Shown here piece after piece: positions 17,522 through 28,868 of a DNA stretch of 64,000 nucleotides (the stretch's first letter is position 1; every line of letters starts with the position of its first letter). The stretch is from an uncultured Clostridia bacterium (GTDB lineage: Bacteria > Bacillota > Clostridia > Oscillospirales > Acutalibacteraceae): assembly GCA_937891195.1 (NCBI GenBank), contig CALAFJ010000017.1:6770-70769 (forward strand). The letters are read 5' to 3'. Position numbers and translations under genes: made by a program. Below the pieces are notes generated by a model. The model was not told the origin of the DNA. It did not search any database and worked only from the letters and a program-made list of their open reading frames with translations.

Positions 17522-18277
17522 TTAAAGTCGGTCAATATAACTGCTGAGTATTTCCAGATCATACCGATTGGCGGCATTCCATTCTTCGTACGTAAAGTCT
17601 GTTTTGTCGTCCGGCAGTTCATCGAATACGCCGCGCTTGCCGGCGGCCAGATCGACTCTTTCTTCCGGGGTATATTGCAGGCCGATGTGCGTAAAATAGG
17701 TGGCATACCCGTTTTCACCGTTTTTTATCTGCGCATTGATATAGGGAACACTTAAAACACCGTATTTACTCAGAGCCTCCAGTTTATCTTCAACCGGCTG
17801 CGGAGAAGCCATGATTGCCGGTATGGCTGTTTTGGATTCCTGAATGAGTTTTTTGATGCCGGCATATTCGGGGTGGATCGAGGAAGATTCATCAAAGTAT
17901 TCCGAGTTCAGAAGAATGTCCATACGGTCAATGGCCAACAGGGTATAAAGGCCCTCAATGTAGAATGCAACCCTGTATCCCTCCCGAATGTTGCCGCTTT
18001 CCAGTTTTTCCATAAGTAAGGGAATGCCCCCGATTCCAATACCGGCCAACTCTTTTGATTCATGTATGAGCACTTTTGTATCCGATGACGCACGGATATT
18101 GGACAAATCAATATCGTCTATCGTTGATTCCACTTTTGAAAAATTCTTTTCTATTTCTTGCGCTCTGGCATCCATTCCGGTAGGAGAAAGCAGAAAAACA
18201 GACACGGTGATCATCATTGACAGGATCAATACGGAAAGAGAGAGACACAATGTGTTTTTTCTTCTGAAGTTAGCCAT
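17522..18277 (-). CDS. Hypothetical secreted or membrane-anchored protein
   Basis: The N-terminus has a TM/signal segment (LCLSLSVLILSMMITVSVFLL). The remaining ~220 aa belong to no family I recognise. Confidence 0.6.
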   Translation of the reverse strand: MANFRRKNTLCLSLSVLILSMMITVSVFLLSPTGMDARAQEIEKNFSKVESTIDDIDLSNIRASSDTKVLIHESKELAGIGIGGIPLLMEKLESGNIREGYRVAFYIEGLYTLLAIDRMDILLNSEYFDESSSIHPEYAGIKKLIQESKTAIPAIMASPQPVEDKLEALSKYGVLSVPYINAQIKNGENGYATYFTHIGLQYTPEERVDLAAGKRGVFDELPDDKTDFTYEEWNAANRYDLEILSSYIDRL

Positions 18278-18565
18278 GATTCGTACCTCCTGTAAATTGA
18301 TTTATTTTGTGTACACATTCCCCCATCTACGGATGGTTTTATTATACCGTTTTTCTTTTCACTTATCAAGTCTTACTATTTAACCAACTGCAAGTGATAG
18401 CCAAGGTATCCTCAAAAAGCGTTTACACACAAATAGCCCCGGAGAAACACATCTCTGTGCTCTTCGGGGATACCCGTTAACTCTCTGACGGCCGCTGCGG
18501 CGGTGGCATATCGCCGGCTATTGACAGCGGCGGGAAACGTTCCCGAGCCGCCGTCCCCGAGCCGT

Positions 18566-18643: not shown

Positions 18644-19411
18644 TCATATGTTCACCGTCAAACCATCATACGCCAGGTGCAACCCTTCTGCCCGCAGGAA
18701 TGCTTCGGTTTCGGCATGGCTTTTATGGAGCGAGGGCGCAATATGGGAAAGCCAAACCTGTGTGTGCTCGTCGATCACCCCGAAATTCCGAAGCGAGGGC
18801 AACATCAGACGAATCATGGGAATGCTATTGTGTTCCGCCATACGATAGTCTCCGGTATAATCTCCCACCGTGCCGTCGAGGATCATCATATCCAGATGCT
18901 TGTCTTTCAAAAAGTAATAGGTATCCGTTAAAAGCCACGCACCGTCGCAGCCATAAAAGACGCGTTTATGCCCGTCCTCGATATAGTAATGCAGTGGGTA
19001 GCCGGTATGATTTGCGTCCAGAGGGGTGATCTCATACGCGCCGAGCTTGACGGAGCGCAGCGCGGTAAGTCCGATGACCTCGCAATGCTTGAGCGAACAG
19101 GCGCTTGCCGCGGAGCTGTGGATCCAAACGCGCAATTTTTCATTGCGCGGGGCGGCGGCGATTTTTTCGATCTCATCCGGCAGAAAGTGATCTTGATGCG
19201 TGTGCGTGATGAGAATGTCGGTGATATCGGAAAGCGGCACGCCCAAAATCCCCAGCGATCCAACCGTATGATATCCGCAATCAATCTGTATATGCCGATC
19301 CAACAACAGTCCGGAGCTGCGGCGGGCATCCTTCCCGAATGTATGGGCATAGGTCGTTTTCAACAGCGGCGAAAAATCTGCGGCGCTGGTTCCTGTAAAT
19401 ATAAGTTCCAT
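18644..19411 (-). CDS. MBL-fold metallo-hydrolase
   Basis: The HTHQDH metal-binding motif (ILITHTHQDHF) is present, with later conserved His/Asp residues. The product is 255 aa. Confidence 0.8.
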   Translation of the reverse strand: MELIFTGTSAADFSPLLKTTYAHTFGKDARRSSGLLLDRHIQIDCGYHTVGSLGILGVPLSDITDILITHTHQDHFLPDEIEKIAAAPRNEKLRVWIHSSAASACSLKHCEVIGLTALRSVKLGAYEITPLDANHTGYPLHYYIEDGHKRVFYGCDGAWLLTDTYYFLKDKHLDMMILDGTVGDYTGDYRMAEHNSIPMIRLMLPSLRNFGVIDEHTQVWLSHIAPSLHKSHAETEAFLRAEGLHLAYDGLTVNI

Positions 19412-23095: not shown

Positions 23096-23367
23096 GCCAG
23101 ATATAACGACGGGGCTGTCGCAAGTGAGAGATCACGGGCGACAGCCCCGTTGCTGCTATGCCGCCGGTTGCGCCGGGGATTTGTGCCGCAGGATCATCGG
23201 CGGTGCGGGCATTCTGCGCCTTTTCGTCCTCGGCACAAAGGGCGGAAAGGTGCGGTGGGTGCGGGCTTGCGTCTGCGGGTATGTCGGTAGCCATGGCGAC
23301 GGAATACTGCTACAATGGGCAGGCGGCGCCGCGCAAAGCCGTTTGGCGCGGTTTGGACGGTGCCGCC

Positions 23368-24237
23368 ATGAAAAAATGGAAGGCGGTATACGGGACTGTG
23401 GAAAGAGTGTGGACGGCCGCCGCGACGGCGGCGTATTGGCAGCAACTGATATCGGAGGAAAAAAGCCCCCGGACCATCGAAAAATACCGGCGGGACATTG
23501 GGGTGTTCCGGCGATATGTCGGAAACCGACCCGTCACCAAAGCGCTGGTGTTGGCCTACAAAGCGGAGCTGCAGGCCCGCTATGCCGCCCGCAGCGTCAA
23601 TTCCATGCTGGCAAGCATCAACAGCCTGTTCAGCTTTTTGGGCTGGCACGACCTGCGGGTGAAAGCGCTGAAATGGCAGCAGCCGGTGTTCTGTCCGGAA
23701 GAAAAGGAGCTGACACGGGCGGAATACACCCGGCTGTGCCGGACGGCGGAGCGCAACCGCAACGAGCGGCTCGCGCTCGTCCTGCAAACCATTTGCGGCA
23801 CGGGCATCCGGGTCAGCGAGCTGCAATATATCACCGTGGAGGCGGTAAAACGCAGCGAGGCGGTGGTGAACTGCAAGGCAAAAACCCGGTCGGTGTTTAT
23901 CGTCAAGGAACTGAAACAAAAATTGCTCCGCTATGCAGCGGAGCGGGGGATAAGAACCGGGATGATCTTTGTGACCCGCACGGGGAAACCGGTAAGCCGC
24001 ACCAACATCTGGCGGGAGATGAAAGCCTTGTGCGCCGAGGCGCACGTCGATCCGCAAAAGGTGTTCCCGCATAACCTGCGCCATCTGTTCGCCCGGGTGT
24101 TTTATGGCATCGAAAAGGACATCGCCAAGCTGGCCGATATCCTCGGACACAGCAGCATCAACACCACCCGCATTTATATCATCTCCACCGGCCGGGAACA
24201 TCGGAAGCAGCTGGAAACAATGCGGCTGATATTATGA
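23368..24237 (+). CDS. Small tyrosine site-specific recombinase (XerC/D-like, no arm-binding domain)
   Basis: A core-binding domain (SPRTIEKYRRDIGVFRRYV) is present. The catalytic residues are present: R in GTGIRVSEL, HNLRH (HxxR), and GHSSINTTRIY (H..Y). The start is chosen at MKKWKAV (23368). Confidence 0.87.
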   Translation: MKKWKAVYGTVERVWTAAATAAYWQQLISEEKSPRTIEKYRRDIGVFRRYVGNRPVTKALVLAYKAELQARYAARSVNSMLASINSLFSFLGWHDLRVKALKWQQPVFCPEEKELTRAEYTRLCRTAERNRNERLALVLQTICGTGIRVSELQYITVEAVKRSEAVVNCKAKTRSVFIVKELKQKLLRYAAERGIRTGMIFVTRTGKPVSRTNIWREMKALCAEAHVDPQKVFPHNLRHLFARVFYGIEKDIAKLADILGHSSINTTRIYIISTGREHRKQLETMRLIL

Positions 24238-24263
24238 AAAAAGCCACCGAAACCGGCGGCAGA

Positions 24264-24283
24264 AACATAATTCACATTATGTT
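24264..24283. repeat. Left inverted repeat AACATAATTCACATTATGTT
   Basis: This is the exact reverse complement of 24515-24534. It has 8-bp palindromic arms around an asymmetric TCAC centre. Confidence 0.85.
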
Positions 24284-24329
24284 ATCAATAAGCCGGGACA
24301 AATATCCAAAATATCCCAGCAGCAACTGT

Positions 24330-24358
24330 ATTTTAGCACACCTACGCGCAAAAGTAAA
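24330..24358 (-). promoter_or_regulatory. Candidate sigma-A promoter inside the invertible segment, currently facing left
   Basis: The minus strand reads TTTACT (24358-24353), a 17-nt spacer, then TGC-TAAAAT (24338-24330), which is an extended -10. Confidence 0.45.
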
Positions 24359-24514
24359 GTCTTTTATAATCGAATTTCCCGCTTTTGCGTAAAATCGGCA
24401 ATCTGAATAAGCCCTTTCGGCGGTATCGTCAACGATTTTACCGAGAGAGCTTGTTTTTTGCTGCCTGAATTTCCTGGACACCATCGGAAAATCGTCCGCC
24501 CGTTCGGCGTTTAC

Positions 24515-24534
24515 AACATAATGTGAATTATGTT
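24515..24534. repeat. Right inverted repeat AACATAATGTGAATTATGTT
   Basis: This is the exact reverse complement of 24264-24283, with centre GTGA. Confidence 0.85.
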
Positions 24535-24551
24535 GCAGAGGGGGTGTGGAT

Positions 24552-24680
24552 ATGGAAATGATGTATTGCCCAGTTTGCGGGAAGGTGTTTGATCCGGTTT
24601 TTGTGCAATTCTTAGACAATGGAAACTCTGCTTGTCCGCAGTGTGTGGTGGGTGAGCAAGAACGGGATTGTAAGAAGTAG
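24552..24680 (+). CDS. 42-aa zinc-ribbon peptide (CPVC...CPQC), absent from the supplied ORF track
   Basis: My own translation gives MEMMYCPVCGKVFDPVFVQFLDNGNSACPQCVVGEQERDCKK. A GAGGGGG RBS lies 7-8 nt upstream. It is the first ORF after the right inverted repeat. Confidence 0.5.
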   Translation: MEMMYCPVCGKVFDPVFVQFLDNGNSACPQCVVGEQERDCKK

Positions 24681-24733
24681 ACGTAAAATCTGTCGGGTAT
24701 GCTTGATTCAAAGTTTGAAAGGGGTGAATAGCA

Positions 24734-25375
24734 ATGAACATAAATACTGGAAAAACTAAGAAGTCAACATTGCTGAAATGGAAATCTGTAATGAGAAGGT
24801 TTTTTTCAAAGCACGAGTATATTCCGTATTTGACAGTTTTATTTTTATTTCCGCTTTTGTTAAACATCATTTTTCTTTTAATTCCAACCTCCTTTTTTCG
24901 GATAGAAGAGGGGGAAATGCTTTCATTCTACGGCGTTGCAGCGGGCATTTTTTCCTCGTATATTACCTATCGTAACGCTGTAAGAAAGGAAAAGGAAGAA
25001 AAGAACAGCAGACTTCGACCTTTCATTGGACTGACAGCCAAAAAGGTATTGGACGATATTGTAGAAATTGAACTGACAAGGTATGGGGATGCTGTGGTAA
25101 GAGATGTTTTTCTCTATGACATTCCATTGACGGATATCTTGGAGAATAAATTAAGGCGGAGAGTTTCGTTTCGTGACGACAAAAAAGATGGCGAAACACT
25201 ACATATGTCGCTTTGTGGCTATGATGAGGATCTGATAGACCAAGGAGATGGACTTCCAAAATATATAACGGTATCTTGTTGTGACAGAGAAAATCGACTT
25301 TGGGTACTTGAATATAGAAAACAAACAGATGGAAATGGTTCTATATACATGTTGGCTGAGTCATTTTTAGGATAG
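24734..25375 (+). CDS. Hypothetical membrane protein (2 TM segments plus a soluble C-terminal domain)
   Basis: The hydrophobic segments are YLTVLFLFPLLLNIIFLLIP and LSFYGVAAGIFSSYITY. An AAAGGGGTG RBS is present. The gene is AT-rich and I recognise no family. Confidence 0.6.
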   Translation: MNINTGKTKKSTLLKWKSVMRRFFSKHEYIPYLTVLFLFPLLLNIIFLLIPTSFFRIEEGEMLSFYGVAAGIFSSYITYRNAVRKEKEEKNSRLRPFIGLTAKKVLDDIVEIELTRYGDAVVRDVFLYDIPLTDILENKLRRRVSFRDDKKDGETLHMSLCGYDEDLIDQGDGLPKYITVSCCDRENRLWVLEYRKQTDGNGSIYMLAESFLG

Positions 25376-25385
25376 GAGGGATATT

Positions 25386-27026
25386 ATGAAAAAGGTATTC
25401 GCCATATTTATTTCTTTGCTGATTGTGACCATGTCAATTCCGTTGGGTGGGTTTCAACTGCTTATAAATGCGGCTACTGCCAGCGGTACAACCGGCGATT
25501 GTACGTGGACATTGGATGGAACAGTACTGACTATAAGCGGTAACGGCACAATGCGCAATTATCAGTGGAACGGGAACAATCTTTCACATACACCATGGAG
25601 AGGAAGTATGACGAAAGTTATTATTAAAGACGGTGTAACGAGTATAGGCAATGCCGTTTTTTCCGGTTGTACGGGGCTTACAAGTGTAACGATACCTGGC
25701 AGTGTTACAAATATAGGGGAATATGCTTTTTACGGTTGTACGGGGCTTGTGAGCATAACCATACCCGATAGTATTGTAAGTATAGGTAAATGGGCTTTTA
25801 GTGGTTGCAGAATCAAAGAACTAAATGTTGCGGAAGGCTCAAAAAAGGTGGTCAGCCAAATAATTGTGTGCGAAAGCACACTGGAAAGTGTAACGATGCC
25901 GGACAGCGTTACATGTATAGATGAGGGCGCTTTTACTGATTGTACAGGACTTACAAGTGTAACAATACCGGATAGTGTTACAAGTATAGGCGATAGGGCT
26001 TTTTCCGGCTGCACAGGGCTCAGAAATGTAACGATACCGGATGGCGTTACAAGTGTAAGATATAGGACTTTCTTCGGTTGCACAGGCCTTACGAGCATTA
26101 CCATTCCGGACAGTGTGACTAGCATAGGCAAGGGTGCTTTTGCCAATTGCACAAGACTGAAAAGAGTAGTGATACCAAGCAGGGTAACCAGTATAGACGA
26201 GGCGGCCTTCGCCAACTGCTCGGAACTGAAAAGCGTAATGATGCTGAACGGCGTAACTGGTATAGGCAAGGACGCTTTTCTCGGGTGTACAGGACTGGCG
26301 AGTGTTACTATTCCGGACAGTGTTACAAGCATAAGCGATAAAGCTTTTTCCGGCTGTACAGGACTTACAAGCATAACTATTCCGAACAGCGTAACCAGCG
26401 TAGGCGAGGGCGCTTTTTCCGGCTGTACAGGATTGGCGAGTGTTACTATTCCAGACAGCATTACAAGTATAAGCGATAAGGCTTTTTCTAGTTGCACAGG
26501 ACTTACAAGCATAACTATTCCGAATAGTGTAACCAACATAGGCGAGGATGCTTTTTCCGGCTGTACAGGACTGATAAGCATCACTATCCCGGACGGCGCG
26601 ATCAGCGTAGGCAAGGGCGCGTTTTCCAACTGCACGGGACTGACAAGCGTAACGATACCGGACAGCGTGACAGGACTTAAATGCAGTGTCTTTGATGGCT
26701 GCAATAAACTGAAAGATGTTTACTTTGAAGGAAGTCAGCAAGAATGGGACAATTTTAGGGTGTTTTCGAATACAGTTTCATCTAATCCATTAATGTACGC
26801 ATTTATCCACTTTAATTCAAAATGTATAAATCACCCCGGTAATCTTGATGGCAATTACGTTATCACCGATGCGGATGCGGTATATCTGCTGATGCATACG
26901 TTTTTCCCGGATGACTACCCGGTCAATCAAGATTGTGACTTTGACGGCGATGGAAAAGTGACAGATGCGGATGCCGTATACTTGCTGATGTATACATTTT
27001 TCCCGGATGAATACCCAATACAGTGA
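25386..27026 (+). CDS. Secreted BspA-type leucine-rich-repeat protein with a C-terminal dockerin-like module
   Basis: A signal peptide is followed by about 17 tandem ~23-aa repeats (IPDSVTSIG..AF.GCTGLTSVT). The C-terminus has two EF-hand-like segments, NLDGNYVITDADAVYLLMHTFF and DFDGDGKVTDADAVYLLMYTFF. Confidence 0.85.
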   Translation: MKKVFAIFISLLIVTMSIPLGGFQLLINAATASGTTGDCTWTLDGTVLTISGNGTMRNYQWNGNNLSHTPWRGSMTKVIIKDGVTSIGNAVFSGCTGLTSVTIPGSVTNIGEYAFYGCTGLVSITIPDSIVSIGKWAFSGCRIKELNVAEGSKKVVSQIIVCESTLESVTMPDSVTCIDEGAFTDCTGLTSVTIPDSVTSIGDRAFSGCTGLRNVTIPDGVTSVRYRTFFGCTGLTSITIPDSVTSIGKGAFANCTRLKRVVIPSRVTSIDEAAFANCSELKSVMMLNGVTGIGKDAFLGCTGLASVTIPDSVTSISDKAFSGCTGLTSITIPNSVTSVGEGAFSGCTGLASVTIPDSITSISDKAFSSCTGLTSITIPNSVTNIGEDAFSGCTGLISITIPDGAISVGKGAFSNCTGLTSVTIPDSVTGLKCSVFDGCNKLKDVYFEGSQQEWDNFRVFSNTVSSNPLMYAFIHFNSKCINHPGNLDGNYVITDADAVYLLMHTFFPDDYPVNQDCDFDGDGKVTDADAVYLLMYTFFPDEYPIQ

Positions 27027-27042
27027 AAAGGGAGTTTTGAAA

Positions 27043-28812
27043 ATGAAAAAGGTAATCAGTTTACTCTTCTGCGTCTGCTTTATGCTTATCCTCTGCGTTC
27101 CTGCTTATGCTGCTGGAACGGCGACACTTAACGAAAACGCATCGACAACGGACGGTTCAACCGTAGAATTTATCCTGAATGTCAGCGGTTGCGGCGACGC
27201 AACGTCTGTTGCCGTTGCGGTGAACTTTGACGATGCTTTTGAACTTGTTTCGGCGACGTGGCTGAAAAACGGTTCGCTGAACAGGTTTGACACCGCAACG
27301 AACAAGGGCGTTCTGGGAGGATTGAATTCTCCCAATATCAACGGGGATGTTTTCAAGCTGGTTCTGAAAGCCAAGACCGCTTCTGCCAATGCGCATACGG
27401 TCAGCGTGAATTTTATTGCCAGAAACGGTTCCAATGATATTATGAATGTCACCCCCACAAAGACGGTGAAAATTGCCTGCAGCTCACATAATTACTCGGC
27501 TTACACCAAACTGAACGACAGCCAGCACCAGCGCACCTGCTCCGCCTGCGGCTATGTGGAAACCTCCGGACATACCTGGAACGGCGGTACGGTCGTCAAG
27601 GCGGCCACCTGCAAGGAGACCGGCACAAAGGAGTATGCCTGCACTGCGTGCGGGGCGAAAAAGACGGAAACGGTCGCCAAAACCAACGCTCACACCTGGG
27701 GGGATTGGCACGTCACCAAGCAGCCCTCCTGCACGGCCCCCGGCACCACCGCCAAGACCTGCTCCGTCTGCGGGAAAACCGAAAATCAGACCGTGAACGC
27801 CACCGGACATTCCATGGGTGGCTGGAGCCAGACCAAGGCGCCCACCTGCACCGAAAAGGGCGAGGAGCAGCGCAGCTGCGGCAAGTGCGGCTACAAAGAG
27901 ACAAAAGCGGTGGATGCGCTGGGACACAGCTTTTCCAACCCGACGGTGACGAAAGAGCCTACCTGCACGGAAACGGGCGTGGAGACCGGTAAGTGCAGCC
28001 GCTGCGGACAGACGACCACCAACACGCTGAAAGCGAAGGGGCACAAATTCGGCGCCTGGGCGGATACCAAGGCGGCTACCTGCACCGAGGGCGGCACCCA
28101 GGAGCGGAAGTGCTCTGCCTGCGGCGCGGCGGAAAGCCGCACCACCAAGGCGCTGGGACACGATTTCGAGAATCCCACCATTGTGAAAGAGGCCACCATC
28201 AGCAGCACCGGTCTGAAAGAGGGCAAGTGCAAGCGCTGTGGTGAGACCACCAGCGAGGTGATTCCCTGCACGGCGAAGGACGACGCCACGGGCGCAATCT
28301 TTGAGGCGGATGCGGGGGTGTTCACGGAAGGCACGACCCTGTCCGTGGAGGAGCTGGGGCAGGATAACCCCTCCTATGCGTCGGCGGAGAATGTGCTGAA
28401 GGACACCTGCAAGGACTTTAAGCTGTACGATGTGTCTGCCTCCCGGAACGGTGCGGATGTACAGCCGAATGGCGAGTTGACCGTGACCTTGCCGATTCCG
28501 GATGGATTCGGGACGGATGTGGCGCTGTATCTGCTGTCCAGCGACGGCACCGCCGAGCCGATCGAGGTCACCGTGAGCGCGGACGGGAAAACCCTGACCG
28601 CCAAGCTGACCAAGCTGGGCGAGCTGGCTATCGGTAAGCTGGGCAACGGCGTGTCGGATGACGTGCCCGGAGATGTTTCGACGGATGCGCCGACTGCCGA
28701 GGAACCGGCCGGGGGGAAAACGTCGGTGGTATTATACATTGTGCTGGCGGCGATCGTGCTGGCCGCCGGCGGGGCGGTCCTCGTGGTGGTGATCCGCAAA
28801 AAAGCCAAATAA
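27043..28812 (+). CDS. Membrane-anchored surface protein: cohesin-like N-terminal module, Cys-rich ~39-aa repeats and a C-terminal TM anchor
   Basis: A signal peptide (CVPAYA) is followed by a ~120-aa beta-rich module (GSTVEFILNVSG...VAVAVNFDDAFELVS...GDVFKLVLKAK). Then come 6-7 repeats of the form GH.[WF]...T..P[TS]CTE.G....C..CG. The C-terminus is VVLYIVLAAIVLAAGGAVLVVVIRKKAK. Confidence 0.75.
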   Translation: MKKVISLLFCVCFMLILCVPAYAAGTATLNENASTTDGSTVEFILNVSGCGDATSVAVAVNFDDAFELVSATWLKNGSLNRFDTATNKGVLGGLNSPNINGDVFKLVLKAKTASANAHTVSVNFIARNGSNDIMNVTPTKTVKIACSSHNYSAYTKLNDSQHQRTCSACGYVETSGHTWNGGTVVKAATCKETGTKEYACTACGAKKTETVAKTNAHTWGDWHVTKQPSCTAPGTTAKTCSVCGKTENQTVNATGHSMGGWSQTKAPTCTEKGEEQRSCGKCGYKETKAVDALGHSFSNPTVTKEPTCTETGVETGKCSRCGQTTTNTLKAKGHKFGAWADTKAATCTEGGTQERKCSACGAAESRTTKALGHDFENPTIVKEATISSTGLKEGKCKRCGETTSEVIPCTAKDDATGAIFEADAGVFTEGTTLSVEELGQDNPSYASAENVLKDTCKDFKLYDVSASRNGADVQPNGELTVTLPIPDGFGTDVALYLLSSDGTAEPIEVTVSADGKTLTAKLTKLGELAIGKLGNGVSDDVPGDVSTDAPTAEEPAGGKTSVVLYIVLAAIVLAAGGAVLVVVIRKKAK

Positions 28813-28826
28813 CGAACGTTCCTGAC

Positions 28827-28868
28827 AGCAGTCGGTGTGCTGATTTGCAGCGCACCGGCTGCTTTTTA
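28827..28868 (+). terminator. Rho-independent terminator after the surface-protein operon
   Basis: An AGCAGTCGGTGTGC / GCGCACCGGCTGCT stem with two wobble or mismatch positions is followed by TTTTTAT. Confidence 0.55.

Follow-up and report, generated by a model that had tools for sequence, protein, structure and literature searches.

Does the short stretch of DNA between a tyrosine recombinase gene and a putative surface-protein operon in an uncultured Clostridia bacterium invert, and does its inversion turn the operon on and off? The locus lies in the 64-kb stretch of contig CALAFJ010000017.1 that was analysed here as a whole (the window). The recombinase gene (23368..24237, plus strand) is followed by two copies of a 20-nt sequence in inverted orientation and then by a co-oriented operon (24552–28812), and a preliminary description of the sequence had proposed that the segment between the two copies is an ON/OFF inverton, captured in its OFF orientation. 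We consider it very probable that the locus is an active ON/OFF promoter inverton captured OFF. The anatomy of the locus is conserved throughout a family of loci in gut Clostridia, and within that family the corresponding segment is found inverted between homologues.

The two copies are the left recombination site (IRL, the left inverted repeat, 24264–24283), AACATAATTCACATTATGTT, which reads AACATAAT-TCAC-ATTATGTT, and the right recombination site (IRR, 24515–24534), AACATAAT-GTGA-ATTATGTT, its exact reverse complement. Each has a dif-like palindromic core of 8 + 8 nt around an asymmetric centre, TCAC on the left and GTGA on the right. In the whole window AACATAATTCACATTATGTT has two matches with no more than 3 mismatches, which are the inverted pair, and two matches were reached in 0 of 100 dinucleotide-preserving shuffles – an exact 20-nt repeat pair is far beyond chance. 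The inverted repeat can be extended to 25 nt at 92% complementarity (24264–24288 and 24510–24534). The sites are 251 nt apart and surround a 231-bp segment (24284..24514). From the stop codon of the recombinase gene to the left repeat there are 26 nt, and from the right repeat to the ATG at 24552 there are 17 nt. The repeat pair, its palindromic arms and asymmetric centres, and both of these spacings had been described beforehand and were recovered unchanged.

Relatives of this recombinase are abundant. More than 8000 were found in the database at E <= 1e-20, many of them about 280 aa long and 78–81% identical, and many homologues are 79–81% identical to the window recombinase across 96–97% of its length. 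The protein matches 672 clusters at the 50% identity level (E <= 1e-30), and a scan of one genome per species gave 548 relatives. Family counts were taken from the best 80 of these 548 loci in the species-representative genomes (L012–L091). These 80 come from gut Oscillospiraceae, Ruminococcaceae, Lachnospiraceae, Acutalibacteraceae and their relatives; two or three copies in one assembly are common.

About 65 of the 80 loci have the motif CATAAT-NNNN-ATTATG roughly 10–50 nt past the recombinase stop codon (a distance read off the printed flanks), with a partner site 240–385 nt further on; the 4-nt centres of the two sites are exact reverse complements of each other. Left sites have the family consensus AACATAAT-Cnnn-ATTATGTTGTA and right sites TACAACATAAT-nnnG-ATTATGTTG. 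There are 28 different 4-nt centres in 68 loci, matched within each locus and none of them palindromic, while the arms are conserved. Matched centres are to be expected, because partner sites must share a crossover region, and invariant arms around a variable but internally matched centre would be the form expected of a tyrosine-recombinase core site; this would not be seen in an operator or in a repeat that arose by chance. The first base of the recombinase-proximal centre is C in 51 of the 68 loci, and several loci carry a matching A-for-T change in both outer arms (CATAAA...TTTATG).

The promoter and the genes downstream follow the same plan. A clear promoter was found in 43 loci, and the distance from the end of its -10 element to the 16-nt core of the facing repeat is 37–50 nt, with a median of 48. 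The promoter lies on the minus strand and faces the recombinase gene (OFF) in 37 of the 43 and lies on the plus strand, facing the cargo, in six; the window has the orientation of the larger group. All structural predictions of the preliminary description were borne out, and the comparative data support its reading. The first cargo open reading frame (ORF) is co-oriented and begins about 20–120 nt past the right site in most loci. Several assemblies have two or three recombinase loci, and most of the loci in multi-locus assemblies carry the site pair.

Direct evidence for inversion comes from loci of the recombinase P0084, which is 79% identical to that of the window. In ten assemblies this recombinase is identical and the 150-nt flanks on both sides are 100% identical, but the 247-nt segment has one orientation in eight of them (L120–127) and is the perfect reverse complement in the other two, which come from other samples (L128–129). 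The sites and their centres are unchanged by the inversion, while the promoter TTTACA-17-TGCTATAAT switches from the minus to the plus strand. An inverted segment with both flanks collinear was also found at orthologous loci of different species in two pairs (L046/L048 and L054/L045), and a further pair (L047/L069) shows the same segment inversion with only the left flank in common. Opposed centres had been taken to predict inversion; the centres are reverse-complementary, and these homologous loci are precisely inverted between the sites.

The window locus itself is OFF in both assemblies that span it, its own contig (ERZ27300197, L001) and the independent ERZ808299 (L094). The preliminary description had suggested a search of related genomes for the site pair in both orientations, and this search found homologues in both and the window locus in the OFF orientation only. 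In a third assembly (GCA_002431285.1) the contig DJEF01000059.1 ends exactly at the equivalent of window position 24515 (position 1 of L093/L097). Reads in mixed orientations would cause a contig to stop at the right repeat in this way.

The 231-bp segment had been thought to contain no credible coding sequence, and this agrees with our assessment: the two ORFs that overlap it, 24234–24392 (52 aa, plus strand) and 24272–24619 (115 aa, minus strand), look spurious and were taken as non-coding. A consensus scan recovered the minus-strand sigma-A-like promoter of the preliminary description (TTTACT-17-TGcTAAAAT, 24358..24330) as a predicted sigma-A type extended -10 promoter, TTTACT-17-TGCTAAAAT (24330..24358), facing the recombinase gene. 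Its -10 element ends 48 nt from the 16-nt repeat core; counted to the edge of the 20-nt repeat, the distance is 46 nt.

Two predicted terminators accompany this promoter. A terminator scan found a putative leftward intrinsic terminator on the minus strand (24233..24260), GCCGCCGGTTTCGGTGGC followed by TTTTTT, in the interval between the stop codon and the left site. Over 57 loci 86% of the cells of this hairpin are paired. Many of the pairs are G-U on the minus strand. As they would turn into A-C mismatches on the plus strand, the hairpin appears to be read leftward. On the plus strand a terminator-like hairpin with a T-run (24411..24460) is predicted by ViennaRNA with a dG of -15.5 kcal/mol and is followed by TTGTTTTTTG; most family segments have a comparable plus-strand hairpin with a T-run at the end distal to the promoter. 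No rightward terminator belonging to the recombinase gene itself was found. After inversion there is no terminator between the promoter and the right repeat.

Taken together, these elements suggest how the switch would work. The recombinase would bind as a homotetramer to the two dif-like core sites at 24264–24283 and 24515–24534, with ACATAA(T) and TTATGT as the arms of the core and T-NNNN-A as its central region, a presumed 6-bp crossover. As TCAC and GTGA are reverse complements, strand exchange would invert the 231 bp rather than delete it. In the OFF state the segment promoter would fire toward the recombinase gene and give a transcript of about 85 nt, which the leftward terminator would end before it could run antisense into the recombinase gene, and the hairpin and T-run at 24411–24460 would keep transcription of the recombinase gene from running on into the operon. 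With the promoter pointing away and read-through blocked, the operon (24552–28812) would be silent. In the ON state the -10 element would lie 46 nt before the right repeat, and transcription would cross the repeat to the putative ribosome-binding site AGAGGGGG and the ATG at 24552. The transcript would encode the zinc-ribbon peptide, the membrane protein, the leucine-rich-repeat (LRR) protein of BspA type and the Cys-repeat protein, and would end at 28827–28863. The predicted ON junctions are ...AACATAATTCACATTATGTT|GTAAACGCCGAACGG and ATTTGTCCCGGCTTATTGAT|AACATAATGTGAATTATGTT..., and ON-specific joins would link GGCGGCAGAAACATAATTCACATTATGTT to GTAAACGCCGAACGGGCGG and ATTTGTCCCGGCTTATTGAT to AACATAATGTGAATTATGTTGCAGAGG.

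The enzyme had been described as a small tyrosine recombinase without an arm domain and with all catalytic residues, and both Pfam domains and structure alignment agree with this. The product of the ORF at 23368–24237 is an Xer-like tyrosine recombinase of two domains, a SAM-like one for core binding and a catalytic one (PF00589 and PF02899; Phage_integrase at 1e-22, N-terminal SAM-like domain at 6e-9), and lacks an arm-binding domain. Among solved structures it comes closest to Pyrococcus XerA (4a8e) and E. coli XerD (1a0p), and its catalytic R, HxxR, H and Y are matched in the alignment with both. The best NCBIfam matches are XerA, XerD and XerC, all under their equivalog cut-offs (XerA 129 bits against 220, XerD 108 against 330, XerC 103 against 335; XerS has 61 against 267). 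The models for tyrosine DNA invertases of FimB/E type gave 25 bits against cut-offs of 221–222, and the integron integrase models gave 43 bits against 265 (TIGR02249) and 24.5 bits against 435 (NF011946). By these curated scores the recombinase is outside the FimB/E, integron-integrase and Xer equivalog families.

The start of the recombinase gene is uncertain. Candidates are the ATG at 23368, the GTG at 23398, which is a reading by eye prompted by the start of homologue alignments, and 23203, the start in the database gene call. An exact-protein look-up found no identical protein on record for the 289-aa form, because the database gene call is 344 aa. A candidate promoter, TAGCCA-17-TGcTACAAT (23288..23316, plus strand), was picked up by the consensus scan. 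Further upstream, next to the start of a divergent small ORF, two arms of 19 nt make up an almost perfect hairpin with a loop of 4 nt (23109–23150).

Several results weigh against an active switch at this locus, or against parts of the mechanism outlined above. No ON copy of the window locus was found in the assemblies traced via the 213-aa, 546-aa and AraC proteins. A Joint Genome Institute (JGI) metagenome scan with the 20-mer gave 21 loci, all of them other family members with a TCAC centre, and the window locus was not among them. The contig break at the right repeat is suggestive and is no proof. Covariation in the leftward hairpin was above that of slid controls but not above that of shuffles over the 57 loci, because the stem is mostly conserved rather than covarying; the case for this terminator is made by conservation and by the strand-specific G-U pairs, not by covariation. 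The promoter and both terminators are predictions from consensus or from folding, and the recombinase might act in trans or need unseen host factors.

That only the OFF orientation is seen in the spanning assemblies would also fit a locked or decaying switch, a descendant of an active family that no longer flips here – for example for want of a well-expressed or active recombinase – and whose operon is permanently silent or driven by another promoter. Two further features point the same way: the 5’ ~200 nt of the recombinase gene (before ~23548–23590) are outside the nucleotide homology to the family, and the inner flanks of the window sites, ATCAA and TTTAC, deviate from the family consensus, TTGTA and TACAA. 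However, the 20-nt repeats match perfectly, the protein retains its catalytic residues and is as close to its many homologues as given above, OFF is the majority orientation even where flipping is demonstrable (8 OFF to 2 ON for P0084), and the contig of the third assembly breaks at the right repeat. We regard a locked switch as unlikely.

Two other explanations would dispense with a switch altogether. The recombinase could be a genomic-island integrase that integrates the low-G+C LRR island, with the palindromes as its att-type or dif-like sites. The G+C content does fall from about 60% to 38–48% right after the recombinase gene, recombinase genes of the family stand beside unrelated flanks in different genomes, which suggests mobility, and the core is similar to dif, a site made use of by some integrative elements (PMC5357621). 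But the sites enclose 231 non-coding bp and not the island, they are inverted and not direct, their centres are reverse-complementary in every locus, and it is the segment alone that changes orientation between identical loci; we think it very improbable that the sites serve island integration. Less probable still, to the point of being hardly credible, is that the sites are palindromic operators at which a transcription factor loops or represses the intergenic region without recombination. Palindromes do suit dimeric regulators, and the pair flanks a promoter, but operators need no centres that vary between loci and yet are reverse-complementary within each, would not always follow a tyrosine recombinase gene, and leave the segments inverted between identical flanks unexplained. 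A promoter inverton accounts for the locus best, at the level of confidence given at the outset.

Among known systems, fimS of E. coli is alike in function: it too is a promoter segment of about 300 bp within inverted repeats, flipped by tyrosine recombinases whose genes lie next to it, that sets a surface adhesin operon ON or OFF. FimB and FimE are about 200 aa long and lack the SAM-like N-terminal domain, and the fimS switch has 9-bp repeats and requires IHF and Lrp. A second comparison is with RecV of C. difficile, several of whose switches act after transcription initiation. The RecV switches (cwpV, flgB, cmrRST and pdcB) share GGDEF and surface-protein cargo with the family described here. 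By description they are set apart by a single recombinase that acts in trans on many dispersed sites and by different repeats, whereas in this family every switch is paired with a recombinase gene next to it and carries its promoter within the segment. RecV, likewise a tyrosine recombinase from Clostridia, is reported to invert short segments upstream of surface-protein genes and of genes for cyclic di-GMP (c-di-GMP) (PMC2784873, PMC7446863, PMC9286219).

Among the Xer/dif systems, XerA-dif, XerS-difSL and XerH-difH likewise use a single recombinase, and the gene can lie beside its site, as xerS does beside difSL. The family core, AACATAA-TnnnnA-TTATGTT, resembles the dif site of E. coli, which we take to be GGTGCGCATAA-TGTATA-TTATGTTAAAT; in a full-text search this string occurs in papers on dimer-resolution sites. 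From this likeness and from the 11-6-11 layout of dif (PMC5357621) we infer the 6-bp crossover and the homotetramer on two palindromic sites. Unlike Xer/dif, the window has two inverted sites 251 nt apart rather than a single one per replicon, there can be several modules per genome, the outcome would be inversion and not dimer resolution, and the recombinase scores far under the equivalog cut-offs. Promoter invertons of Bacteroides and the Xer1/Vpma system of Mycoplasma also have local tyrosine recombinases that flip promoters or gene fragments for surface molecules, with many switches per genome (PMC11892184, PMC2268961). They differ in phylum, repeat motifs and promoter types, and the likeness is one of description and shared Pfam domains.

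The preliminary description could match this combination of site, recombinase and cargo to no described system. This has to be qualified: a class that is probably the same has been reported. A PhaseFinderDC survey of the hCom2 gut community (2025, Microbiome) lists an inverton group 139 with an invertase group 35 (PMC11892184). In group 139, 32 of the 33 invertons are in Clostridia (17 strains), and nearly every one adjoins a tyrosine recombinase that the inverton cannot regulate. The two examples printed there are about 255 bp long with repeats of 14–26 nt, and flipping in culture is supported by reads for Clostridium sp. D5 and Intestinimonas butyriciproducens; the link between recombinase and inverton is given as a statistical association. 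Judged by geometry, taxon and adjacent recombinase, and not by motif, group 139 is probably the switch class described here, though in the passages searched we did not find the dif-like core, the variable matched centre or the layout of terminators and promoter. The locus is thus in function a classic promoter inverton, and its family has probably already been flagged in bulk; what the present analysis adds is the family-level anatomy and a sequence rule for locating the switches and their cargo.

A homologue in Monoglobus pectinilyticus with 47% protein identity keeps the CATAAT-type site. Phage and plasmid collections gave only distant recombinase homologues, at 36–52% identity. One of these, on pMM59_01 of Pusillibacter faecalis MM59 (L140, 4300–4619), is 52% identical and is followed, at the equivalent position, by a different 26-nt inverted repeat, TCCTATAGACAAAAACAACATTTCGT, with arms 268 nt apart, a third partial copy, and a gene for an S-layer-homology protein downstream. 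This locus looks like a sister switch type with another site.

The genes that stand behind these switches are varied. Pfam matches among 71 downstream proteins include SPFH (8), LRR_5 of BspA type (7), zinc ribbons (5), collagen repeats (4) and GGDEF (4), as well as Eco57I and N6 methyltransferases, ResIII, dockerin and subtilase. Such cargo is typical of phase-variable genes, and the cargo of the window fits the pattern. LRR_5, Big_3, cohesin and dockerin domains are combined in the protein of 1600–1750 aa that the P0101 cassette gates. The abundant P0059 and P0084 cassettes (L002–L011 and L120–L129) gate a methyltransferase system of MmeI/Eco57I type, a candidate phase-variable restriction-modification system for which both ON and OFF states were seen. 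At the P0059 loci a T5orf172/ResIII protein comes after this system, and relaxase, NikA-like and serine-recombinase genes adjoin the cassette, which places these copies on a mobilisable element.

The operon of the window had been described as five AT-rich surface-protein genes. Its co-oriented arrangement stands, but 24552–28812 holds four credible ORFs, of 42, 213, 546 and 589 or 601 aa, and is AT-rich only in part. The first ORF (24552..24680, plus strand, with the ribosome-binding site upstream) encodes a 42-aa zinc-ribbon peptide that has weak Pfam matches to Zn_ribbon_8 and DUF7575 and is called as a gene in an independent assembly. The second (24734..25375, plus strand) encodes a 213-aa protein with predicted membrane segments. 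The third (25386..27026, plus strand) encodes a 546-aa secreted LRR protein of BspA type (PF13306 LRR_5, 1e-127) in which a signal-peptide-like N-terminus and two C-terminal dockerin-like segments were seen by eye. The last ORF (27007..28812, plus strand; 601 aa, or 589 aa from 27043) encodes a protein with a signal-peptide-like N-terminus, again seen by eye, Cys-rich repeats of about 39 aa and a C-terminal membrane anchor. Neither the 213-aa nor the 601-aa protein matched a Pfam family. A strong intrinsic terminator with a 16-bp stem followed by TTTTT (plus strand, 28827 to 28863 or, in the widest annotation, 28873) is predicted at the end of the operon. The G+C content of 38–48% is limited to about 24200–27400, and in the 3’ part of the last gene it is 57–64%.

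An assignment of dockerin and cohesin domains to the cargo proteins was rejected, as the match to Dockerin_1 was not significant (E 0.72) and cohesin had no match in Pfam. Tandem repetition is frequent in these genes. The LRR repeats of the 546-aa protein are encoded by 69-nt tandem units (25630–26731), a duplicated 56-nt unit (26865–27016) encodes its two dockerin-like segments (‘DGxVTDADAVYLLM.TFFPD.YP’), and in the gene for the membrane-anchored protein each unit of 117–120 nt (27597–28128) codes for a Cys-rich module of about 39 aa. Elsewhere in the window, a gene for a metallo-beta-lactamase-fold protein (18644–19411, minus strand) has a precomputed Pfam match to PF23023, Anti-Pycsar_Apyc1, and just upstream of it, at 18000–18399, the G+C content is 38.5%.

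How far the switch is a portable unit was assessed in 392 pairs of loci with recombinase genes alignable at a nucleotide identity of at least 75%. In nearly all of them homology sets in no more than about 200 nt before or after the start of the recombinase gene, with three pairs extending well upstream, and its downstream end is the left or the right repeat except in three pairs. The nucleotide homology of the window to the family stops exactly at 24283. With homology bounded by the gene start and the repeats, the conserved unit is the recombinase together with its sites. Its placement before unrelated genes in different bacterial families points to horizontal spread or cassette shuffling. One could go further and see here a self-contained mobile switch cassette that serves any operon – an Xer-derived recombinase, invariant dif-like arms, a hypervariable 4-nt address code and insulating terminators – but we hold this broader view only tentatively, and it may well not be right. 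If it were, cassettes in the same genome could flip independently without cross-recombination, dozens of mutually orthogonal site variants would already exist for one small recombinase, and the short OFF transcript, converging on the recombinase mRNA, might feed back on the switching rate.

Whether copies in the same genome avoid a shared centre was considered and rejected as a finding. By hand tally, the centres differ in nine of 11 multi-copy assemblies and are shared in two (L039/L043 and L038/L065). As a shared centre is expected in only about 5% of random pairs, these counts give no sign of selection against sharing, and the idea was kept as a mechanistic inference.

Phase variation is much less understood in the abundant gut Clostridia (Oscillospiraceae and Lachnospiraceae) than in Bacteroides or C. 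difficile. The family described here occurs in at least 548 places in species-representative genomes, where it appears to control adhesin-like LRR genes, methyltransferase and restriction genes, c-di-GMP cyclase genes and SPFH genes. A simple rule – a recombinase gene, CATAAT-N4-ATTATG, about 250 nt, and the reverse-complement site – would allow such switches and the genes that they gate to be annotated from sequence. The sites, with conserved arms and a free centre, could offer synthetic biology a compact natural toolkit for recombination. For the source organism, the prediction is that the operon for the BspA-type surface protein would be expressed in only a subpopulation of cells.

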